Below are positions 1 through 28,237 of a stretch of DNA of 64,000 nt, one piece after another. Positions within the stretch are counted from its first letter, which is position 1. Each line of letters opens with the position of its first letter. Below the pieces are notes generated by a model. That model was not told where the DNA came from, ran no database searches, and saw only the letters and a list, made by a program, of their open reading frames with translations. The stretch lies in the NCBI GenBank assembly GCA_020249045.1, contig JADCGK010000003.1, positions 17,077-81,076 of the forward strand, in the 5' to 3' direction. A program made the translations under genes and the position numbers. Origin of the DNA: Azospirillum sp. Its GTDB lineage: Bacteria; Pseudomonadota; Alphaproteobacteria; CACIAM-22H2.

Positions 1-88
1 GCTGACCCAGAACGTCCGGCGGATTCAGACCCGACTCAGGTCGCCATGCGATCCCTGCGGCCTCGCCGCCACGGATCGCCGCCGCGCC

Positions 89-592
89 ATGACCACATTG
101 ACGAGCGCCGACTACCGCCTCGAGCCGTTCGAAACGGCGACGTGGCACGCCCGCCCGCGCGCGGTCTACGCGCATTGGCGCGGCTTGCCGCGCACCAACG
201 GCCCGTTGCCCGCGCGCGGCAGTTTCGATGCGTTCGCAGTACCGGGCGCGCTGGGGTGGCTGTGGCTGCACGACGTCGAACGCGCGCCCTTCCGGCTGCG
301 CTGCCGCCTGTTCGGCTCGTTGCTCGCCCAATGCGTCGGCACGGACATCACGGGCGAATATCTCGACGCGCGACCGCTCGTCGACGCAGGCCGCCCGCTC
401 GATATCGACCGTCTGCGCGCGAGCGCGATCGACGGAAGACCCACCTGGACGCGCAGGGGCCTGGAACTCGCGCACGGCCAATCCTGGGCCGAGGTCGAAA
501 GCCTGATCCTGCCCTTCGCGGCCGACGGGCATACGCCGGACATGGTGCTCGGCGTTTCGACCTATTATCGCAGCGACGGGTCGGTCGTCTGA
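89..592 (+). CDS. Hypothetical protein, PAS_5-like (DUF1457-type) domain; paralog of the C-terminal domain of the adjacent response regulator
   Basis: ATG at 89 verified, TGA at 590-592. 167 aa. Shares the motif pattern [LV]xVERxPxR[LF]RxRxxGxxLAxxxGxDxTGxxLD ... LxLPF with the C-terminal 160 aa of the 606-1535 product. Family name is recalled from memory, not searched. Confidence 0.55.
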   Translation: MTTLTSADYRLEPFETATWHARPRAVYAHWRGLPRTNGPLPARGSFDAFAVPGALGWLWLHDVERAPFRLRCRLFGSLLAQCVGTDITGEYLDARPLVDAGRPLDIDRLRASAIDGRPTWTRRGLELAHGQSWAEVESLILPFAADGHTPDMVLGVSTYYRSDGSVV

Positions 593-605
593 GCGCGCGC
601 GCCGG

Positions 606-1535
606 TCACTCGAAGCAAGCGAGAACGGCCGTCACGCGATCGTCTTCGCCGAAGGGCAGCAGCAAGCGGCGATAGTCGACCAGGAAAAGCGTCTGGATCG
701 CGCGCACGCGCTTGTAGTGCGGCGCGCGTTCGGCCAGCACCTTCGCGTAGGCCGGTTCGGCGTGCCGCCGGAACAGAAAAGGCTGTTCGTCCAGGCAATG
801 CCCGGTCGGATCGCGGCCGAGCCGTGCGGCGAGCGCCGCGCCGACGTGCCGATAGCGCAAGCGCGGGCCCGGCCGCTCCACCTCGACCAGCGCGAGCATC
901 GCCGCGGCCGCGGCGGCATCGTCCAATCGCCATTCGGCCAGCGCGGCGCGCGACGGCAGACGCGCGCGTCCGCGCGCGCGGTTCCAGGCCTCCAGGAACG
1001 CGCGCATCGGCGCGCTCGCCTCGCGTTTGAAGGCGAGACCTTCCGCGCCGCGCAGCCATTCGTCGTTGCCGCGCACGCGCGCGAAGGTGCGGATCAGCTT
1101 CTCGCGCACTTGCTTGGGCGAGATGGGCTTGACCAGATAGGCCGTGATCTCGTGCGCGCGCGCGGCCGCCACGGCGGCCTCGCGCCCGTCGCCGGTGACC
1201 ATCACGAACGGCAAATCGGGATCGAGTTCGCGCAAGCGCCGGCGCAGTTCGAAGCCGTCCATCCCGGGCATGTGCAGGTCGCACAGCACCACGTCGAACC
1301 GAGCGGCGCCGCTGCGCACCAACCCCAGCGCCTCCTCGCCGGATTCGGCCGTCATCGCCACGCTGACGCCCATGCTTTCGAGCATTTTTCGCGCGAGATT
1401 GCGCGCGAAGGCGTCGTCGTCCACGATCAACGCCGCGAAATCGGACGGGAAAGTTTCCGGCGAATCCTGCGTCACGTCCCGCTTCCGTTGGCTGGCGCCG
1501 ACCGGGCGCCTGATCCCCGCCCCGAAATCGCGCAT
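606..1535 (-). CDS. Response regulator: N-terminal receiver (REC) domain fused to a PAS_5-like output domain
   Basis: Start codon (cat) verified at 1533-1535. The product MRDFGAG...ALIVDDD...DVVLCDLHMPGMDGFEL...AYLVKP is a classic REC domain with the acidic pocket and conserved K. The C-terminal ~160 aa are homologous to the ORF at 89-592. The rest of the 827-aa track ORF is antisense artefact. Confidence 0.7.
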   Translation of the reverse strand: MRDFGAGIRRPVGASQRKRDVTQDSPETFPSDFAALIVDDDAFARNLARKMLESMGVSVAMTAESGEEALGLVRSGAARFDVVLCDLHMPGMDGFELRRRLRELDPDLPFVMVTGDGREAAVAAARAHEITAYLVKPISPKQVREKLIRTFARVRGNDEWLRGAEGLAFKREASAPMRAFLEAWNRARGRARLPSRAALAEWRLDDAAAAAAMLALVEVERPGPRLRYRHVGAALAARLGRDPTGHCLDEQPFLFRRHAEPAYAKVLAERAPHYKRVRAIQTLFLVDYRRLLLPFGEDDRVTAVLACFE

Positions 1536-1610
1536 TTTGGCCGCGCGCGCAAGATCGCCCGCGTGATCCGCCGGCGGGTCGACGGCGTACTGACCGATGG
1601 GGAGCCATCG

Positions 1611-2393
1611 ATGATCAAAACCTTCGCCGCCACGGTCGCAGCTTTGCTGTGTGCCGCGGCACCCGTCGCCGCCTTCGATCTGGTCGCGTTGACCGATCGC
1701 AACGAATTGATCCGCTTCCGGGATTCCGAGCCGGGCCGGACCGCCATGGTCGCGATCCTGGGAACGGAAGGGCGCGTCCTCGCCATCGACGTGCGCCCGG
1801 CGAACCGCACTCTTTACGCGATCGACGACAAAAGCACGCTCTACACCCTCGACCCGCACACCGGCCACGCCGCGAAGATCGCGACGCTCTCGGCGGCGCT
1901 GGAGGACGCGACCCATGCGCTCGCCGACTTCAACCCGCAGGCCGACCGGTTGCGCGTGATCGGCGCCGGCGGCCAGTCGTTGCGCGTGAACGTCGAAACG
2001 GGCCAGACGGTCGTGGACGGGCGACTCAAATTCGCGCCCGGCGACGCCCATGCCGGCAAAACGCCGCGTGTGCTGGCGGGCGCATATTTGAATTCGATCC
2101 CCAACGCGCCGAACACGCAGCTGTTCGAATACGACGCCGAAACCGGCGCCTATCTGATCCAAGATCCGCCCAACGACGGCGTGCTGCAAACGGTGGGCGA
2201 TCCGCCGCTGCCCGCGGGCGTCGCCGTCGACGCGATGGACATCCACACGACGCCCGATATGCGCGACTACACGGGCTTCGCCGTCGCGCGGAACAATCTC
2301 TACCGCTTCGCCATTTCCTCGGGCCGCTTGACGCCCGTGGGGCCGATCGCCGCGGGCGCGCGGCGCGTGGTGGACATCGCGGTCTTGCCGTAA
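1611..2393 (+). CDS. Secreted DUF4394-family protein (predicted beta-propeller)
   Basis: ATG at 1611 verified, GGAG 6 nt upstream. N-terminal signal peptide MIKTFAATVAALLCAAAPVAA. Repeated DxxTGxxY-like motifs. TAA at 2391-2393. Confidence 0.65.
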   Translation: MIKTFAATVAALLCAAAPVAAFDLVALTDRNELIRFRDSEPGRTAMVAILGTEGRVLAIDVRPANRTLYAIDDKSTLYTLDPHTGHAAKIATLSAALEDATHALADFNPQADRLRVIGAGGQSLRVNVETGQTVVDGRLKFAPGDAHAGKTPRVLAGAYLNSIPNAPNTQLFEYDAETGAYLIQDPPNDGVLQTVGDPPLPAGVAVDAMDIHTTPDMRDYTGFAVARNNLYRFAISSGRLTPVGPIAAGARRVVDIAVLP

Positions 2394-2409
2394 GCGCCGC
2401 GCGCGCCGA

Positions 2410-2745
2410 TCAATCGGCGGCCGTGCCCGCCGCCAGGAACGCCGCGAGGATTTCCTCGACATAAGGCTCCGCGGGCTTGCGCAGATCCCACGTGCCGGCG
2501 GCGAATCCCTCGGCCTGGCGCACGAGTTTGCCGCGCCCGCGCACTTCCACCGTACCGGCCGAATCGCGGATGCCGAGCACGAAATCGAAAGGCTGGGTCG
2601 CTGCGGCGAGATCCGTATCCGCGCGCACGCGGAAGCCGTTGCGGCTCCAATCGGCCACGGGGTAGGACACGCCGTCGACCAGCATCGTGCCGGTGGCGAC
2701 GGATTTGCGCGGTTGGGTCCGCCGTTCGGTGGAGTCGTTTTCCAT
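2410..2745 (-). CDS. PilZ domain protein (putative c-di-GMP receptor)
   Basis: 111 aa. RRTQPR (RxxxR) and DWSRNGFRV (DxSxxG) motifs. Start and stop codons verified. Confidence 0.65.
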   Translation of the reverse strand: MENDSTERRTQPRKSVATGTMLVDGVSYPVADWSRNGFRVRADTDLAAATQPFDFVLGIRDSAGTVEVRGRGKLVRQAEGFAAGTWDLRKPAEPYVEEILAAFLAAGTAAD

Positions 2746-2757
2746 GACGGCGGGACG

Positions 2758-3660
2758 TTAGCGGAGTTCGGGCGCCCCGGAAAGGGCCCGCACGAAGCGC
2801 GGTTCGCCCGCGTAGACGAAGCCGCCCAACGGCCGCTCGCGGTTGCCGAGTTCGGGAAAAATCCGCGCGAGTCGGACCGAGACCCCGCCGGGCGCGTCGG
2901 ACAGCGTCGCCGCGTAGCGTCCCGCCCCGGCCGAAAACTCGAACGTCCACAAGGCCGGTCCGCGGTCGCGGTCGCGATGTTCGGGCAGCCCGCGCCACGG
3001 CGCGCCCGTGCGCAGCGCGCGGACCAATTCGGGCAACGCGGGTTCGAGTTCGGCGAGCGCTGGCCGGCGCGCTTGGATGCTGGCCGCATCGTTGGGATCG
3101 GGCGCTTCGATGCGGCCGTCGAGCCGGGTTTCTAGAACCACGCGGCAGACCGGCGCGCGCGCCGCCCCCGTCCGCGCGACGGGATAAAGATCGATCCGCG
3201 CCTCATGCACGCGAACATGAGCAAGATAGCCGCGCCCGGCCACGCCGACCGGGCGCAGCGCGTCGGGCGCGCACAACGCGCCGTCCCCGCCCACCGGCGG
3301 ATCGGCCAGCGCGCGTACGCCGCCCTCCTCGGCGCGATAAAGCGCGAAAACCTGGCAGCGTGCGCTGCCCTCGCGCAGTTCGACGAAGCGCACGCCCGGA
3401 ACATGCGGAACCCCGGCGCGGCGCGCGCCGTCCGCCGCCCGGAACCCGGTGCCGCCCAAGCGGATGTCGGCGCGCGCGAAGGCGGGCATGACGGCGCCGG
3501 GAATTGCGTCTTCGGCGAGCGCGCGGCCCATTGCGGCGGCCGGCGCCCCCGTTTCGAAACGCGCGTCGATCGCCGCCGCCAGCGCGTCGCATGGCGTCCG
3601 GGCGACGGCGGGTGCCGCGATCAGCGCCGCGCTAAGTGCGGCGGAAAGCGTAGGTCGCAT
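2758..3660 (-). CDS. Hypothetical secreted protein (Ala/Arg-rich)
   Basis: Start assigned at MRPTLSAALSAALIAAPAVA (signal-peptide-like); cat verified at 3658-3660. No recognisable domain. A long ORF in 70% GC DNA could be partly spurious. Confidence 0.4.
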   Translation of the reverse strand: MRPTLSAALSAALIAAPAVARTPCDALAAAIDARFETGAPAAAMGRALAEDAIPGAVMPAFARADIRLGGTGFRAADGARRAGVPHVPGVRFVELREGSARCQVFALYRAEEGGVRALADPPVGGDGALCAPDALRPVGVAGRGYLAHVRVHEARIDLYPVARTGAARAPVCRVVLETRLDGRIEAPDPNDAASIQARRPALAELEPALPELVRALRTGAPWRGLPEHRDRDRGPALWTFEFSAGAGRYAATLSDAPGGVSVRLARIFPELGNRERPLGGFVYAGEPRFVRALSGAPELR

Positions 3661-8555: not shown

Positions 8556-9564
8556 GATGGATGGCATGTCGCAAACGGGGCAAATCGACGACGCGAAAAG
8601 CACCGCGGAACATGCTTTGGAGCGCACGCCGAAGGCGGCCGACGAAACCAAGCGCTTCGAGTTCGTGCACAAGGTCTTCGCGGTTCCCGGCGCGATCTTC
8701 GAACTCGACGACCACACCAACGAACCGGTCTTGAAGCTCGACCTCGGCGATTTGCGCGCGGCGATGACGTTCGAGACGCTGCGCGCGAATTTCGGCCTGA
8801 CGGCGGGCTCGCCCGACGACCGCGCGCTGACGGACGTCGGCAAGGCGTTGGGATTCGTGCGCTGCGTTCGGCCGGGCGACACGATCCCGGCGGAATTGCT
8901 CGACGGCTCGGCGTCCTGGCGGGTCGAACCGCGCCATCTGGCCACCGCCCAAGGGCGGATCACGGCGGGCCTGCTCGCGTGGCTGGGCGAGGGCACCAAA
9001 GCGGAAAGCGCCGTCGAACTGGCCGCCCTCGCGGCCGACGCGGGCGTCAAAGCCAATGTGCAGACGGCCTTCGGCCGCTTGGCCGTGCGCATGGGCCTGC
9101 CCGATGACCGACGCGGTGAAGTCGTCGATGCGGTCGATCGGCTGGCGAACGAACTGTCCTATATCGAGGCATTGCGCGAGAAGGTCGGCCAGACGCGGCG
9201 CGCGGTCGAATTGTTCAAACGTCTGCGCGCGGCCTACAAACGCGAACGCGGGGCGTCGGAAAGTCTGGAGCGGATCGTCCATCTGCTCGAGCGGCCGGTG
9301 AAACGCTACGAAGCGCGCCTTGCCGAAGTCGACGCGCAGACCGGCGAGATCCAGAACACGATCATCAACCTCGCCCGGCAGATCGCCTTCGTTCGCGAGG
9401 CGCGCGATTGGCTGCATCGGGAGATCATGCGCTGGGACGACGTCCTGGAAACCTGGGCTGGGGAATCGGCCGAACCGTCCCACGCCCAGCAACGCAAGAT
9501 CGGCGCGACCTATCGCTTTGCGGCGCGATATTTTCCGCTCGTCGAAGAATGGGTCCACGGCTGA
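8556..9564 (+). CDS. Hypothetical protein with coiled-coil region
   Basis: ATG at 8556 verified. 336 aa. No recognisable catalytic motifs. Directly upstream of, and co-oriented with, the hybrid histidine kinase. Confidence 0.5.
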
Positions 9565-9604
9565 GTTTGCCGGCCGCGACGGGCCGGTTCATAGTCCTCG
9601 AGTC

Positions 9605-11479
9605 ATGTCCGCCGCCGATTCTCCACCGCCCGTGCCGCCGCCCGGAAACCCGCCGGCCGAAGCCGCGCGCGTGCGCGGCTGGTTCGCGGGCCTTGTGGGA
9701 TGCCTTGCGCTAGCGGCGCTGGCCGGCGTTGCGGCACTCGTCGAGCAACCGGGTGCCGTCGAGGCCGCGATCGCGGCAGTACTCTCGGGATTGGGTTGCG
9801 CCGCGGGCCTTGCGCGCGCGTGGCGTGGCGAAGTCGAGCGGCCTTTGGCGCGGCTGGCGCGCGCGGCCGAGGATTTGGCGGGCATCGCACCCGCCGCCGA
9901 TACGGCGCCCCGCGCGGCGATGGAACGTGCGCTCGCCGCCTTGCGCGAAGCGGGGGCCGCGCGCACGCGCGCGGGCCGCGCGGCCGAAAACGCGCGACGT
10001 GCCAAATCGGCGTTCCTGACGGCGATGAGCCACCGGATCCGCACGCCCATGCACGGCATCCTGGGCTTGGTCGAAACCCATGCGGCGGGCGAGATGTCCG
10101 CCGAACGGCGCGCGACGTTGCGCACGGTGCGCCAGTCGGCCGAGAACCTTCTCGCCGTCGTCGACGATCTGGTCGATTACGCGCGCATCGATTCCGATTC
10201 GATCGCCGTCGACCGCCGGGCGACCGACGCGGGCGATCTTCTGGAGCAGGCGGCGGTCAATCTGGCGGGGCTCGCCGAAGCCAAGGGACTGGCGTTGTCG
10301 TGCTTCGTCGATCCCGAAATCGTCGAACGCTTCAAAATCGATCCGTTGCGCGTGCGCCAAGTGCTGTTCAACCTGATCGGCAACGCGATCGGCCGTACGC
10401 AAGCGGGCTTCGTGCATGCGCGCTTGTCGCTGGCGGGCGGACAGTTGATCTTCGCGATCGAGGACAGCGGCGCGGCGCTGGCGCCGGATACGATCGCGCG
10501 TTTGCTCGATCCTTCGGGCGAGCCGGGCGACGGCCTCGCCGCGTTCCGCGCCGGCGCGACGGGGTTGGGCCTGCCAGTGTGCCGGGCGTTGGCCGAACGC
10601 ATGGGCGGACGCATCCGCGTGCAGTCGCGCGAGTCCGGCGGCGCGGTTTTCGCGCTCGAGCTTCCGGCCGAACCGGCCGGCGGCGGCTTGCAGCCTTTGC
10701 CGGCCGCGGACGTGCTGGAAGGCCGGCGCGTGCGGATCGCGGGTGCGGCGGATCCCGCGCATGCGGCGGTGGCGGCCTATCTGATCGCGGCGGGCGCCGC
10801 GATCGTCGGGCCGCGCGACCCCGCCGATCTCGCCATCGCCCTGCCCGGCGCCGGAGATTTCGGTCCGCCCGGTCCCAAGCGACTGCGGTTGACGACGCTG
10901 CCCCCCGTGGGTCCGCCCGAGGAGGCCGATGCGGGCGCCACGCTGTTGCGCCGTTCGGCGATCGTCGCGGCGGCGGCGCGCGCGCTCGATCTCGCCGACG
11001 AAGGGATCGAGGAATCCGACCCCGCGACCTTGCCGCCGTGCGAACCGCCCGCGCGCGACGCCGCGCGCGCGCAAGGCGCGCTCATCCTCGCCGTCGACGA
11101 CCATCCGGTGAACCGCGAGGTCGTGGCCCTGCAACTCGCGCGGTTGGGTTACCTCGCGGACACCGCGGCGAGCGGCGCCCAAGCCTGGACCATGTGGCGC
11201 GCGGAACGCTACGGCCTGATCGTCACCGATCTGCACATGCCCGATTTCGACGGCTTCGAACTCGCCCGGCGCATCCGCGCGGCCGAAATCCAGGAGGACC
11301 GCCCGCGCGTGCCGATCGTCGCGCTGACGGCCGCCACGGGGGCGGAGAACCTCGCGGCCTGCTACGAGGCCGGGATGGACGGCGTATTGGCCAAGCCGCT
11401 GCCGTTCCGGGGGTTGGCCGAAGCCATCCGCCGCTATCTTCCCGCCCGCGCGGACGTCAAAACCAGCCGCGACGCTTGA
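9605..11479 (+). CDS. Membrane-anchored hybrid sensor histidine kinase/response regulator
   Basis: ATG at 9605 verified. Two N-terminal TM segments. H-box SHRIRTPMHGILG. HATPase N/G boxes. A roughly 130-aa Ala/Pro-rich linker. C-terminal REC (ILAVDDHPVNREV...DLHMPDFDGFEL...LAKPL). Confidence 0.8.
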   Translation: MSAADSPPPVPPPGNPPAEAARVRGWFAGLVGCLALAALAGVAALVEQPGAVEAAIAAVLSGLGCAAGLARAWRGEVERPLARLARAAEDLAGIAPAADTAPRAAMERALAALREAGAARTRAGRAAENARRAKSAFLTAMSHRIRTPMHGILGLVETHAAGEMSAERRATLRTVRQSAENLLAVVDDLVDYARIDSDSIAVDRRATDAGDLLEQAAVNLAGLAEAKGLALSCFVDPEIVERFKIDPLRVRQVLFNLIGNAIGRTQAGFVHARLSLAGGQLIFAIEDSGAALAPDTIARLLDPSGEPGDGLAAFRAGATGLGLPVCRALAERMGGRIRVQSRESGGAVFALELPAEPAGGGLQPLPAADVLEGRRVRIAGAADPAHAAVAAYLIAAGAAIVGPRDPADLAIALPGAGDFGPPGPKRLRLTTLPPVGPPEEADAGATLLRRSAIVAAAARALDLADEGIEESDPATLPPCEPPARDAARAQGALILAVDDHPVNREVVALQLARLGYLADTAASGAQAWTMWRAERYGLIVTDLHMPDFDGFELARRIRAAEIQEDRPRVPIVALTAATGAENLAACYEAGMDGVLAKPLPFRGLAEAIRRYLPARADVKTSRDA

Positions 11480-17700: not shown

Positions 17701-19617
17701 ATGAAGCTATTCGGATCATTCGGCGGCGGCGGCGACGGCTGGCGCGACTTCTTCGAAACGGCGCCGGTCGGGCTCTTCGAGATCGATTCCGGCGGCCGAT
17801 TCGTTCGCGCGAACAAGCGATTCGCCGAAATCCTGGGGCGTCCCGCGCCCGAAATCCTCGGCGGCCTGCGATGGGCGGACGTGCTCGCCGAGCCGCTTTC
17901 AATCGCCGATCCCGCCGCAATTTTTGCGGATCCGGCGCAGAGTTCCGGCGATCTGCGGCTTCGCCGCGTGGCCGGCCCCCCGGCGCATGTGACGGTCGAT
18001 ATCGACCGAACCAGCGGCCGCATCCGAGGCCTCGTACGCGACGCCGGACGCGAGCGCGAAATGGCGGAAGCGTTACGCCGCAGCGAACGGACGTTCCGCC
18101 GGTTCTTCGAGAACGCGCCGGTGGGCGTGGCGCTCGTCGATCCGGACGGTCGCCTGACCGAAACCAACGCCGCCTTCCGCAAACTGATCGCGACGGACCG
18201 CGAGACGGCGATCGGCCGGCCGTTGGCCGATTGCGTGGCGCCGGAAGATCGCGAGGATTTGCCGCGGCGCCTGCGGAAACTCGCCGCCGACGCCGTCGCG
18301 CGCGACGCGCCCGACCGTTTGGCCCTGCGCTTGCGCGCCTTCGACGCGGGCGCGGGTCGGGACATCCCCGTGGCGGTCTACGCCCGGCCGCTCGACGACG
18401 TCGCCGGCGCCGAAGGCGCGACGATCCTGCACTTCCTCGACGTGACCGAACAGCGGCGACTCGAGACGCAATTCGCGCAATCCCAGAAGATGCAGGCGGT
18501 CGGCCAACTTGCGGGCGGAGTGGCGCACGATTTCAACAACCTGCTGACGGCGATGATCGGTTTTTGCGATCTGCTGCTGCTGCGCCATCAGCCCGGCGAT
18601 TCGTCGTTCGCCGACATCATGCAGATCCGCCAGAACGCCAACCGCGCGGCGAATCTGGTGCGCCAGTTGCTCGCTTTCTCCCGCCAGCAGACGCTGCAGC
18701 CCAAAGTGCTCGACGCGAGCGAGGCGCTGACCGAGCTTTCCCATCTGCTGCGCCGCCTGATCGGCGCGGCAATCGAGTTGAAGGTCGTGCACGCGCGCGA
18801 CCCTTGGCCGGTGCGCGTCGATCAAGGGCAGCTCGAGCAGGTCATCATCAATCTGGCCGTGAACGCGCGCGACGCGATGCCCCACGGCGGCACGCTGACC
18901 ATCCGCACGTCCAACGCCTCGCGCGCGAAGCCCGAACGCCACGGCGACGAGGAGATTCCGGCCGGCGACTATGTGCGCATCGACGTGGAGGATACGGGCA
19001 CGGGCATTCCGCCCGACATCCTCGGGCGGATCTTCGAGCCGTTCTTCTCGACCAAGGAAGTCGGCTCGGGAACCGGGCTGGGGCTTTCGACCGTCTACGG
19101 CATCGTTCGCCAGACCGGCGGCTTCGTGCTGGTGGAGACCGAGCAAGGCAAGGGATCGACCTTCACGCTGCTTTTGCCGCGTTGGACGGGGCCGGCGGGT
19201 GCGCAAGGCGGCGTGGAGCCCGCGCGCAAACGCGACCTGACCGGTGCCGGCACCATCCTGCTGGTCGAGGACGAGGATGCCGTCCGCCTGTTCGGCGCGC
19301 GCGCGCTGCGCAACAAGGGGTACAAGGTGGTCGAGGCCAAAACGGGGGATGCCGCGCTCGACATCGTGCGCGAGATGGGCGCCGAAATCGATCTTCTGAT
19401 CACCGATGTCGTCATGCCCCAAATGGACGGAACCACGCTGATCCGCGAGGCGCGCAAGCTTTTTCCGGCGCTGAAGATCGTCTGCATTTCCGGGTATGCG
19501 GAGGAGCAGTTCCGCCAGAACCTGGAAGGCTTCGAGAACGTCCATTTCCTGCCCAAGCCCTTCAGCCTGGATCAGCTCGCAGGGAAAGCCAAGGAGGCGA
19601 TGCGCGCCTCGCCCTGA
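17701..19617 (+). CDS. cckA: CckA-like hybrid histidine kinase (PAS-PAS-HisKA-HATPase-REC) without transmembrane region
   Basis: ATG at 17701 is the first codon after an in-frame TAA at 17686. H-box region [34 protein letters not shown], and [15 protein letters not shown], match my recollection of CckA signatures. C-terminal REC ([11 protein letters not shown]...DVVMPQMDG...LPKPF). Confidence 0.7.
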
Positions 19618-19626
19618 CCGCGGCGG

Positions 19627-21447
19627 TCAGAGGGCGCCGGCGCGGATCCAAAAACGGAAGACGCTGCCCGCGCCCGGCGCGCTCTTCGCCTCGATGCCGC
19701 CGTCCATCGCGGCGGCCAAACGCTTGCAGATCGCAAGCCCCAATCCGGTCCCCCCGCGCGTGCGCGTCGTCGAGGTGTCGGCCTGATAGAACGGCACGAA
19801 CAGCCGGGCGAGCGTCGCCTCGTCCATGCCGATGCCGGTATCGGCGACTTCGCCGGTCAAGCGCCAGCGGCCGTCCGGCTCCCGGTCGGCGGTGAAGCGC
19901 ACGTCGATGCGGCCGCGCTCGGTGAACTTGATCGCGTTGCCGACCAGATTGACGACGACCTGGCGCAAGCGGCCGCCGTCGCCCGCGACACGGTGCGGCA
20001 GACCGGGCGCGATCCGGAACACGAGCGCGTTGCCACGCTCCGCCGCACGGGCCTGAAGACCGGCGACCGCCGATTCGATCGTTTCGACCGGGTCGTAGGC
20101 GCCATGGGCGAGTTGGAGTTTGCCCGCCTCGAGCTTGGCGAGATCCAGCAGGTCGTCGACGATCGCGATCAAGGCTTCGGCCGAAGCGCGCGCGATCGCC
20201 GCCCACCGCGCTTGCTGGGGTGCCAGCGGCGAATCCTCGATCAGATCGAGCGTGCCGATCACCCCGTTGAGCGGCGTACGCAACTCGTGACTCACCATCG
20301 CGAGGAATTCCGACTTGGCGCGGTTGGCGGCCTCGGCGGCGAAGCGCGCGCGCTCGGTTTCCGTCTCGTCGCGGATCGTGGCGAACACGCGCCGGGCGAC
20401 GCGCGCGGCGTCGAACTCCACGCGGAAATCCTCGCGCACGTAGCGGATCGCGCCGTCCGGGCGGACCATCCGATAGCGCCGCGTGCCGCGCGCCTGGGGC
20501 GTGCGGAAGACGTCGAGAAGGCCCTCGCGGTCGTCCGGGTGCACGCAAGCGAGCCAGGCTTCGCGCGTCGCGGGCGCGTTCTCCGGGACGCCCCAAATCG
20601 CGCGGGCGCGCGGCGACCAATTCTGCGCGGCGTCGTCGCGGTCGGCCGTCCACCACCCCAGTTCGGCGACGTTCAAGGCCAGCGCCAGATGCGCCTGGGT
20701 TTCGTTGAGCGCGGTCATGTCGCGCACGACCGTCGCGATGCCGCCCGCGCGGGTGCGGCGTTCGATCGTGCGGTAGACGCGCCCCACATGCCCGCCCTCG
20801 ACGATCGGCGGTCCCGGATTGCGGTGCCGTTCGAGCCGCTCGAGACGCCAAATCTCCCGGACGGCGGCGTCGCTGAATTGCGGCAAGACCGACGCCAGAT
20901 GCGCGATCAGCGCCTCGAACTGCACGCCGTGGCGCAGCACCGGCGCGAGTTGGGGGAACATTTCGAGGTAGCGGCGGTTGTAGACGACGACACGGTCGGC
21001 GGCGTCGCACAGGCAGAACCCGTCCGACAGCGATTCGAGTCCGTCGGCGATCAAGGCCTCGGCGTCCTTCAACGCCGTCACGTCGACGACGGTGCCGATC
21101 CGCAAGGAGCCTTCGGCCGCCTGGCCGATTTCGCGGAACCAGCGATACTCGCCCGAGTCCGACCGAGCGCGGTAGACGACATCCATCCGCTCGCCGCCGC
21201 GCAACGCGCGATGGGCGGCCAAGTAGGCGCGTCTGTCGTCCGGATGCAGGTATCTCGCCAGCATCAACAGGTCCGCGCGCGCGAAGGCGACGGGATCAAA
21301 GCGCCAAACGCGCGGCAGATTGGGCGAGTAGCGGAATCGGCCGACGCTTACGTCCCACTGCCACGTCGCGGCACCCGAAATCTCGAGCGCCTGTTCGAGA
21401 TGCGCGGCCAGCATCGTGCGGTCGGGATCGATGTCGCTTGCGTTCAC
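19627..21447 (-). CDS. Soluble multi-PAS sensor histidine kinase (no receiver)
   Basis: GTG start at 21445-21447 per the track; an alternative ATG at 21412-21414 (MLAAHLEQ). Three PAS-like segments. H-box SHELRTPLNGVIG. HATPase N, G1 and G2 boxes. Confidence 0.8.
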   Translation of the reverse strand: MNASDIDPDRTMLAAHLEQALEISGAATWQWDVSVGRFRYSPNLPRVWRFDPVAFARADLLMLARYLHPDDRRAYLAAHRALRGGERMDVVYRARSDSGEYRWFREIGQAAEGSLRIGTVVDVTALKDAEALIADGLESLSDGFCLCDAADRVVVYNRRYLEMFPQLAPVLRHGVQFEALIAHLASVLPQFSDAAVREIWRLERLERHRNPGPPIVEGGHVGRVYRTIERRTRAGGIATVVRDMTALNETQAHLALALNVAELGWWTADRDDAAQNWSPRARAIWGVPENAPATREAWLACVHPDDREGLLDVFRTPQARGTRRYRMVRPDGAIRYVREDFRVEFDAARVARRVFATIRDETETERARFAAEAANRAKSEFLAMVSHELRTPLNGVIGTLDLIEDSPLAPQQARWAAIARASAEALIAIVDDLLDLAKLEAGKLQLAHGAYDPVETIESAVAGLQARAAERGNALVFRIAPGLPHRVAGDGGRLRQVVVNLVGNAIKFTERGRIDVRFTADREPDGRWRLTGEVADTGIGMDEATLARLFVPFYQADTSTTRTRGGTGLGLAICKRLAAAMDGGIEAKSAPGAGSVFRFWIRAGAL

Positions 21448-25883: not shown

Positions 25884-27413
25884 TCAGGCGAACGTCTTGA
25901 CGAACGCGTCGAGCAGACCGCGCAGCTTCTTGTCGGTCTCGGGCTTGATCTCGCGGTCGGTGCGGATGGCGCCCAGGATGTCCTGGTGCTTGGCGCGCAC
26001 TTCCGACATGAACGCGGCCTCGAAGCGGCCGACGTCCTTGGTCGCGACGCTGTCGAGATAGCCGTTCACGCCGGCGAAGATCGCCACGACCTGCTCTTCG
26101 ACGGGCAGCGGCGAGTATTGCGGCTGCTTGAGCAGTTCGGTCAGGCGCGCGCCGCGCGCGAGCAGCTTCTGGGTCGACGCGTCGAGATCCGAGGCGAACT
26201 GCGCGAAGGCGGCCATTTCGCGGTACTGAGCGAGCTCGAGCTTGATCTTGCCCGCGACCTGTTTCATCGCCTTGATCTGCGCGGCCGAACCCACGCGGCT
26301 GACCGACAGGCCGACGTTGATGGCCGGACGGATACCCTTATAGAACAGGTCCGTTTCGAGGAAGATCTGCCCGTCGGTGATCGAAATCACGTTAGTCGGA
26401 ATGTAGGCCGACACGTCGCCCGCCTGGGTTTCGATGACCGGCAGCGCCGTCAGCGAGCCCGCCTTCATGGCGTCGGACATCTTCGCCGCGCGCTCCAGCA
26501 GGCGCGAGTGCAGATAGAACACGTCGCCCGGGTAGGCTTCGCGGCCCGGCGGACGGCGCAGCAGCAGCGACATCTGGCGGTAGGCGACGGCCTGCTTGGA
26601 AAGATCGTCATAGACGATAACCGCATGCATGCCGTTGTCGCGGAAATACTCGCCCATCGCGCAGCCCGTGTAGGGCGCGAGGAACTGCAGCGGCGCCGGG
26701 TCCGACGCGGTCGCCGCGACGACGATGCAGTACTGCATCGCGCCGTAGTCTTCGAGCGTCTTGACGATGCGCGCGACGGTCGAACGCTTCTGGCCGACGC
26801 AGACATAGATGCAGTAGAGCTTCTTGGACTCGTCGTCGCCCGCGTTGATCGGCTTTTGGTTGATGAACGTGTCGATGGCGACGGCGGTCTTGCCGGTCTG
26901 ACGGTCGCCGATGATCAACTCGCGCTGGCCGCGGCCGACGGGCACGAGCGCGTCGATCGCCTTGAGGCCGGTCTGCATCGGCTCGTGCACCGACTTGCGC
27001 GCGATGATGCCGGGGGCCTTCAGCTCGACGCGGCGCTTTTCGGTCGCCTGGATCGGGCCCTTGCCGTCGATCGGGTTGCCGAGACCGTCGACCACGCGGC
27101 CGAGCAGGCCCTTGCCGATCGGCGTTTCGACGATGGCGCCCGTCCGCTTGACCGTGTCGCCTTCCTTGATGTCCCGGTCGTCGCCGAAGATCACGACGCC
27201 GACGTTGTCGGTCTCGAGGTTCAGCGCCATCCCTTTGATGCCGCCGGGGAATTCGACCATCTCGCCGGCCTGGACCTTGTCGAGGCCGTAGACGCGGGCG
27301 ATGCCGTCGCCGACCGAGATCACCTGACCGACTTCCGCAACGTCCGCGGCGGTGTCGAACTTGGCGATCTGGTCCTTCAGAATGGCGGAGATTTCGGCGG
27401 CGCGAATATCCAT
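25884..27413 (-). CDS. atpA: F0F1 ATP synthase subunit alpha
   Basis: 509 aa. GDRQTGKT P-loop; canonical alpha-subunit sequence. Confidence 0.95.
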
Positions 27414-27435
27414 CTTGGTACCCTCTTCCGGAATA

Positions 27436-27996
27436 TCAGGCCCGACCCGCGAGGGTCAGGTGGAGACGCTTGAGTTGGCCTTGCAGCGAGGCGTCGACGA
27501 GGCGGGAACCCACCTTCACCTTCAGCCCGCCCAGGATGCGGGGGTCGACCTTGAGGTCGAGCGAGATCTTGCGGCCAGCGCGGCCCGCGAGCGCGGCTTC
27601 CAGCGCCGCTTTCTGCGCGTCGGTCAACTCGACCGCCGACACGACTTCGGCGGTCGTTTCGCCGCGCTTGGCGGCCAAAAGATCGCGATACGCGGCGAAA
27701 ATCGTCGAAAAACCGCCCAGACGGCGGTTCCGGGCGAGCGTGCCGAGGAAGCGGCGCACCAAATCGCCGATCCCGAGCGCCTGGGCGACCGCCAAAAGGG
27801 CGGCTTCCTGCGCCTTGCGCGGCAGCAGCGGGCTCGACATCGCGCGGCGCAAATCGGCCGACTGGCTGCGCGCGGCTTCGATCTTCTTGAGGTCGGCCAG
27901 AACGGCGTCCAGGGCCTTGCCTTCATCGGCCAATTCGTAGAGCGCGCCCGCGTAACGCTGAGCGAGGCCGGCGGCGACGGAACTGTCGGATGCCAC
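27436..27996 (-). CDS. atpH: F0F1 ATP synthase subunit delta
   Basis: 186 aa. First gene of the atpHAGDC operon (F1 operon separated from F0, as in alphaproteobacteria). Confidence 0.85.
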
Positions 27997-28237
27997 GGAG
28001 CGGACTTCCTTTTGGACCGGAATTGCGACCCCCTCGAGCGGGCCGCAACCCCATTGAAAAACAACAGAAAACCAGGCGGGATAGATCGCCTTCCCACCGG
28101 CGCGGGCGAGTAGCTACCACAGCCCCCCTCGCGATGCAATAAGCCTCGGCCCGTCGTCGGCGGAAGTCGGTGAATTCAGACTCGATTAAGCGCTTCGCGA
28201 GATAGTCTTGGCGTCTCGCAGGGATTTTCAGCCGACA

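Follow-up and report, generated by a model that had tools for sequence, protein, structure and literature searches.

The analysis concerns two convergent genes near the start of a 64-kb stretch of contig JADCGK010000003.1, which is referred to below as the window and was derived from a Tagaea-like alphaproteobacterium of an uncultured Rhodospirillales lineage of metagenome-assembled genomes (MAGs). One gene (minus strand) encodes an orphan CheY-like response regulator with a complete phospho-acceptor site, which apart from its receiver has a single module, a divergent PAS_5 domain at the C-terminus. The other (plus strand) encodes a free-standing PAS_5 protein. Because the G+C content of the window is about 70%, mechanical lists of its open reading frames (ORFs) are full of long spurious stop-free frames. 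For example, an 827-aa ORF at 606-3089 (minus strand) holds the regulator gene and runs antisense through the neighboring DUF4394 gene. The real genes were picked by domain and homologue evidence; gene boundaries in this window need the support of homologues. The features of the locus, with the evidence for each in brackets (AF2, AlphaFold2), are:

89 to 592, plus strand: free-standing PAS_5 protein, 167 aa (Pfam PAS_5, AF2 model, Foldseek)
593 to 605, no strand: spacer of 13 nt between the convergent stop codons (read from the sequence)
606 to 1535, minus strand: response regulator with receiver (REC) and PAS_5 domains, 309 aa from ATG 1535 or 289 aa from GTG 1475 (Pfam, homologues, AF2)
609 to 1013, minus strand: divergent PAS_5 domain, regulator residues 175-309 (sub-threshold Pfam match, hhalign, AF2)
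1029 to 1058, minus strand: regulator-specific linker motif, W160-L-R-x-x-E-G-x-x-F169 (conservation in 18 homologues)
1095 to 1430, minus strand: REC domain, regulator residues 36-147
1536 to 1610, no strand: intergenic region separating the divergent regulator and DUF4394 genes, 135 nt if the start is at 1475
1611 to 2393, plus strand: DUF4394 protein, 260 aa, with a signal-peptide-like N-terminal sequence (Pfam, 204 bits)
2410 to 2745, minus strand: 111-aa protein carrying the PilZ-type motifs RxxxR and DxSxxG, unconfirmed as to family (motifs only)
2758 to 3660, minus strand: 300-aa protein without family match, with a signal-peptide-like N-terminus (syntenic in the closer relatives, clade A below)

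The convergent layout given in an earlier note on this DNA was correct in coordinates and orientation, the two stops ending at 592 and 606. A promoter and terminator scan of positions 1-3000 found nothing beyond what shuffled sequences give. No terminator-like site lay within the spacer, and the two found elsewhere were no more than shuffles give.

Domain composition and relationship of the two proteins

The N-terminal part of the regulator was matched by the Pfam Response_reg model (PF00072) with 90.9 bits, and everything expected of a receiver site is in place: the acidic pocket, the phospho-acceptor Asp, and the conserved Thr, aromatic residue and Lys. By both sequence and structure, this domain is nearest to CheY, DivK and the receivers of hybrid kinases. 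Homologous regulators are 289-296 aa long and begin at the position of GTG 1475, and residues 1-26 of the longer form are unconserved and have a low predicted local distance difference test (pLDDT) score; therefore GTG 1475 is probably the true start. In the linker motif, W160, R162 and E165 are invariant and G166 and F169 nearly so among the 18 homologues, and the motif lies outside the region that hhalign aligned to free PAS_5 proteins. The C-terminal domain was matched by PAS_5 over residues 175-299 with 17.3 bits (E 0.0045), which is under the 22-bit gathering score of Pfam; two homologues of the regulator pass it, P0135 with 23.6 bits and P0139 with 35.2 bits. In the AF2 model (pLDDT 81) this domain consists of an N-cap helix and five strands. 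The NCBIfam model for MopJ, the characterized PAS_5 protein of Caulobacter (NF051868), was absent from the best 25 of the regulator's 104 NCBIfam matches.

The free protein was matched by PAS_5 (PF07310) with 26.6 bits (E 6e-6) over profile positions 5-135 of 137. The Pfam comparison that the earlier note had called for thus places the free protein in the family and leaves the regulator domain below threshold. The structure predictions it had also proposed gave the same PAS topology for both proteins. In the free protein (pLDDT 86; predicted template modeling score, pTM, 0.84) five strands were modeled, at residues 58-65, 68-75, 119-126, 132-143 and 152-160. Its best fold matches in the PDB were LOV and PAS domains (Foldseek; E about 4e-4, template modeling score about 0.5). 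The LOV-type photoreceptor that such matches might imply was ruled out, as the identity is 13-18% and the LOV flavin-cysteine motif is lacking; the sole LOV-like cysteine, C72 in RLRCRLFG, belongs to strand B-beta of the model and is replaced by Y, W or I elsewhere in the family. An assignment as MopJ orthologue was ruled out as well, with 34.2 bits for NF051868 against an equivalog cut-off of 200 bits. No solved structure for PAS_5 was detectable by sequence-profile searches.

The two proteins were aligned by BLASTP with 46% identity over 37 aa (E 2e-5), a stretch that covers the motif noticed earlier; ERxPxRLRxRxxG...GxDxTGxxLD...LxLPF is indeed present in both. Among 396 six-frame ORFs of the window, each was the only significant match of the other, at E about 1e-5 both ways. 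A third ORF (27328-28110) gave a weak phmmer match to the free protein (E 0.009) and was not recovered by the family hidden Markov model (HMM) at E 1e-3. When a profile of 14 regulator C-terminal domains was compared with one of 21 free PAS_5 proteins, hhalign returned a probability of 98.7% (E 3.3e-16) over 132 columns, which covers the whole domain, while the pairwise identity of the two domains was merely 27-29%. In a neighbor-joining (NJ) tree all regulator domains formed one clade, including that of the P0025 type (35% identity to the window regulator), which points to a single fusion event; the free proteins encoded near regulator genes fell into at least four other subfamilies. A recent duplication was ruled out by the low identity together with this tree. 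As judged from these comparisons, the two domains are ancient paralogues homologous over their whole length, so that the earlier description of a paralogous pair holds in the ancient sense only, and the shared motif is the signature of the PAS_5 family instead of a special resemblance of the pair.

To see how common such proteins are, the profile of the regulator PAS_5 domain was run against 1.84 billion cluster representatives (50% identity clusters, E <= 1e-3), and 1,988 proteins were retrieved. Among the best 150 of them, most were about 110-260 aa long with a single match, and almost all of those without REC domain were free proteins; 8 were tandem two-domain PAS_5 proteins of about 300-400 aa, and 6 were REC fusions (P0018, P0135, P0138, P0139, P0143 and, weakly, P0270). 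In GTDB species genomes the fusion was carried by 11 loci, all of them from Tagaea or Rhodospirillales MAGs. The REC-PAS_5 fusion is thus a genuine and monophyletic architecture that is maintained in 11 or more species-level genomes, yet it is rare and phylogenetically narrow. The search for the gene neighborhood of P0139 turned up only contigs of less than 2 kb. One further match, P0140 (215 aa), joins an N-terminal tRNA-synt_1c fragment (residues 4-111) to a strong regulator-type PAS_5 match (110-211) and is probably a chimeric contig or a miscalled gene. No paper on the REC-PAS_5 fusion was found; for PF07310, DUF1457, PAS_5 and DUF4394, two papers on MopJ were the only relevant literature that the searches yielded.

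Gene neighborhoods of the regulator in relatives

The regulator loci were grouped by identity to the window regulator into clade A (63-76%), clade B (45-53%) and the P0025 type. Over 17 non-redundant loci, a total of 15 free PAS_5 genes were located no more than 5 kb from the regulator gene, each of them 3' of it, versus 0 further away, in 142 kb each of near and far sequence (the far part including 57 kb of this window); the loci counted are not phylogenetically independent, and the count covers the sequence around them, not the genome-wide number of PAS_5 copies. The neighboring free copies stem from at least four PAS_5 subfamilies, which implies that association with the regulator gene came about repeatedly.

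In six species-level loci of clade B, a gene for a 149-aa PAS_5 protein follows the regulator gene on its 3' side and its ATG overlaps the TGA of the regulator (TGATG), which indicates co-translation. In the five loci with enough downstream flank, another free PAS_5 gene follows at a distance of 3-4.5 kb, beside a glycosyltransferase gene. On its other side, the regulator gene of clade B is transcribed divergently from genes for type I secretion, which encode an ABC transporter, an AprE/HlyD-type protein and SapC together with a giant cadherin/RTX protein, and this neighborhood hints that the regulator family is tied to surface or adhesin functions. The cadherin/RTX-repeat protein exceeds 4,000 aa, and the secretion cluster was seen upstream of the regulator gene in L006, L007, L009 and L020-L023.

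In the P0025 type, the ATG of the regulator gene overlaps (ATGA) the stop codon of a gene encoding an MHYT-PAS-HisKA-HATPase-REC-Hpt hybrid kinase, and a free PAS_5 gene is located 3.7 kb downstream. The overlap with the gene of an Hpt-bearing kinase suggests that regulators of this family receive phosphoryl groups from a phosphorelay; the REC-PAS_5 family would be phosphorelay-fed, as read from the gene order of this 35%-identical relative.

In clade A, the genes run in the order GNAT, thrS, SpoU, 2-oxoglutarate (2OG)-oxygenase, 300-aa protein, 111-aa protein, a variable cassette, DUF4394 and the divergent regulator, and the regulator gene adjoins the DUF4394 gene divergently in all loci. In the nearest relatives (L001/L002, L033), a dienelactone hydrolase (DLH) gene lies 3' of the regulator gene, and it is the hydrolase gene on which the free PAS_5 gene converges. 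This gene is absent from the window's own strain (L034, 100% identical), in which the left flank is pdxJ (L034:5523-6835) versus FYDLN_acid-aroA-cmk-rpsA in the relatives (L001:7821-9045). The changed flank and the missing hydrolase gene together mark the locus as a point of rearrangement and deletion. Since the hydrolase gene separates the two genes in the nearest relatives and is missing here, the 13-nt juxtaposition is lineage-specific and arose by loss of that gene. In a sister subclade within clade A (63-67% identity; L004/L005, L014-L016), no free PAS_5 copy was present in the available flank, which amounts to 10 kb on each side in L014 and L015.

Outside the window lineage, the nearest orthologues of the free protein (59-64% identity) are located elsewhere, with no REC-PAS_5 regulator. 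Some form a tandem pair after a chemoreceptor (methyl-accepting chemotaxis protein, MCP) gene near puc and light-harvesting complex (LHC) genes, and another lies beside an ArsR-type gene. The tandem pair was seen in a phototroph-like relative (L029:3449-6498), in which two free PAS_5 genes (products 59-62% identical to the free protein of the window) directly follow a HAMP-MCP gene, by pucC and the light-harvesting genes. This setting suggests that the PAS_5 subfamily of the free protein can be tied to chemotaxis signaling.

Flanking genes and kinases of the window

The DUF4394 neighbor named in the earlier note was borne out by a match to the full-length profile (PF14339; 204.1 bits, threshold 29.6); no relative of this protein was found in the PDB by sequence. 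The 111-aa protein had been called a single-domain PilZ receptor. No match to it was found in Pfam (including the PilZ HMM, PF07238), NCBIfam or PDB profiles even at E 10, and none of its 18 homologue clusters contained a Pfam domain. PilZ proteins bind cyclic di-GMP through the motifs RxxxR and (D/N)xSxxG, which lie about 20 residues apart. In the 111-aa protein they read R9-x-Q-x-R13 and D32-W-S-R-N-G37, with a distance of 18 residues, and neither varies among 17 orthologues with identities as low as 54%. By its motifs only, the protein may therefore be called PilZ-like, and it is unconfirmed as a family member.

The 300-aa protein had no Pfam or NCBIfam match. Its gene and that of the 111-aa protein (2410-3660, minus strand) are co-directional, with the 300-aa gene upstream; the pair lies downstream of the SpoU and 2OG-oxygenase genes, and its synteny is kept throughout clade A. 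Between the 111-aa and DUF4394 genes there is a slot that in relatives is filled by a gene for a bacterial globin or a YHYH-domain protein (L001:4686-5231; L004:4147-5118; L033:6179-7138). It is empty in the window (about 2394-2409), where the stops of the two genes are 16 nt apart.

As had been remarked earlier, no kinase gene is adjacent to the regulator gene. Three kinases are encoded 8-21 kb away: a hybrid kinase without recognized sensor domains (9320-11479), a PAS-PAS hybrid histidine kinase (17701-19617, plus strand) and a PAS_7-PAS_3 histidine kinase (19627-21447, minus strand). The latter two genes are convergent, with stops about 10 nt apart. In the ORFs scanned, no response regulator adjoined any of the three. 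Furthermore, neither STAS proteins nor anti-sigma kinases (HATPase-type) nor PP2C phosphatases, the components of partner-switching systems, were found among the eight products scanned in the first 5 kb and the nine ORFs scanned at 7.5-21.5 kb, which speaks against the partner switching that the earlier note had suggested.

Possible modes of action

The known protein closest in kind to the free protein is MopJ (CCNA_00999) of Caulobacter crescentus. It has been reported that this single-domain PAS_5 (pfam07310) protein co-purifies with DivJ, that its localization needs DivJ residues 329-392 (the HisKA region), and that it affects DivK and DivL (PMC4432633, PMC4620464). MopJ is alphaproteobacterial and acts in His-Asp signaling through protein contacts, its complex with DivJ being HisKA-dependent (PMC4432633), and the free protein resembles it in family, size and single-domain build. 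MopJ is not an orthologue, however, and unlike the regulator it has no receiver attached; the window organism belongs to a Rhodospirillales MAG lineage, and no DivJ-type context is present. The regulator, on the other hand, resembles the REC-PAS regulators, a recognized class without DNA-binding, enzymatic or other output that has been proposed to work by dimerization and protein-protein contacts (Galperin et al. 2018; PMC5847659). That class was described mainly in archaea and with PAS/PAS_9-type domains (PMC5847659), whereas the regulator carries a PAS_5 domain, a type otherwise mostly free-standing, as well as a conserved linker specific to its family. It also resembles the single-domain regulators CheY, DivK and CpdR in being an orphan and, for its receiver, in being closest to the CheY/DivK types and hybrid-kinase receivers, and differs from them by the added conserved domain of about 135 aa and the linker.

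Based on the MopJ analogy and on the view of REC-PAS regulators as dimerization or interaction devices, we tentatively favor a role of the regulator as a phosphorylation-gated PAS_5 protein-interaction adaptor that works with free PAS_5 partners. PAS_5 is taken here as a protein-interaction domain. D86 would be phosphorylated by a non-adjacent kinase or a phosphorelay, and the phosphorylation would probably change the oligomeric state or the exposure of the PAS_5 domain via the WLRxxEGxxF linker, so that binding to a partner becomes gated. Most likely, the free protein would share this pathway and either pair with the PAS_5 domain of the regulator or bind to a target that both have in common. 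In that case, the regulator would represent a normally free, trans-acting module that has come under the control of phosphorylation. The tandem PAS_5-PAS_5 proteins and tandem gene pairs indicate that PAS_5 domains work in pairs, which favors pairing. As for the process controlled, the secreted or surface proteins encoded nearby (DUF4394 here, type I secretion and a giant adhesin in the sister clade) weakly suggest cell-surface or motile-sessile behavior.

Several points weigh against this adaptor role. The pTM of the two-domain regulator model was only 0.54, which leaves the REC-PAS_5 interface undefined. The MopJ analogy spans a low similarity, as the score of the free protein for NF051868 shows. 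Being convergent, the regulator gene and the free gene are not co-transcribed. The remaining points also speak for the possibility that the two genes are independent neighbors, both drawn from a large family of free PAS_5 signaling proteins and each having its own partner, with their convergence a by-product of gene loss and rearrangement. In favor of this are the hydrolase gene between the two in the closest relatives, the pdxJ flank as a sign of rearrangement, the sister subclade without free copy, the orthologues of the free protein that lie after an MCP gene or by an ArsR-type gene and lack the regulator, and the low identity of the two domains. The near/far enrichment of free copies, always 3' of the regulator gene, their origin from several subfamilies and the translationally coupled pair in the sister clade speak against independent neighbors, and we consider this explanation somewhat unlikely, though it is the strongest competitor of the adaptor role. 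The functional link that the earlier note had drawn between the two genes is accordingly partly supported. Proximity across the 17 loci, the TGATG pair and the tandem PAS_5 proteins and gene pairs support it for the family; for this particular gene pair it is weak, as the tight convergence is confined to one lineage and the sister subclade is without a free copy.

It is also conceivable, at a clearly lower probability, that the regulator uses its PAS_5 domain as an input and not as an output: the domain would sense a small molecule and modulate (de)phosphorylation of the receiver, which would itself act on its targets in the manner of a single-domain CheY/DivK-type regulator. Ligand binding is common among PAS domains. 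Polar residues are invariant both in the regulator-family domain (R225, D249/E250/Q251, R256) and, for the free family, at the aligned motif (R73, T88/G89, R102), and the similarity of the receiver to CheY, DivK and hybrid-kinase receivers would fit. It has also been considered that the PAS domains of REC-PAS regulators may serve as input (Galperin et al., PMC5847659). However, no cofactor or ligand motif was identified, the LOV flavin-cysteine motif is absent, and MopJ, the sole characterized PAS_5 protein, acts by protein contacts without a known ligand (PMC4432633). Strict competition, the reading put forward in the earlier note, in which the free protein and the regulator domain contend for one partner or ligand and phosphorylation chooses the winner, is the least probable: the common signature residues and the neighborhood association agree with it, but the two domains are no more closely related than any two PAS_5 subfamilies, so that identical specificity is not expected, partner-switching components were lacking in the ORFs scanned, and the tandem fusions favor pairing.

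A more specific form of the adaptor role can be drawn from MopJ and DivJ, namely that a REC-PAS_5 regulator and a free PAS_5 protein encoded nearby assemble into a heteromeric pair under the control of phosphorylation, and that such pairs dock on the DHp/HisKA region of histidine kinases. This is a long shot, about on a par with the ligand-sensing input. If true, a response regulator would feed back on kinases or cross-connect them through a detachable, trans-acting sensory module, a layer of two-component wiring so far undescribed.

The REC-PAS_5 fusion is an undescribed and rare variant of two known kinds of protein, the REC-PAS regulators and the MopJ-type PAS_5 proteins. Its practical weight is limited, as the hosts are uncultured Tagaea-like MAG lineages. 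PAS_5 is nevertheless a large, mainly alphaproteobacterial family, as the number of representatives retrieved indicates, and MopJ is the one studied member found in the literature. A natural receiver fusion that is repeatedly accompanied by free PAS_5 genes provides a concrete handle on this family, and it leads one to predict a paired action of PAS_5 domains, with phosphorylation as a possible switch of their binding to partners.

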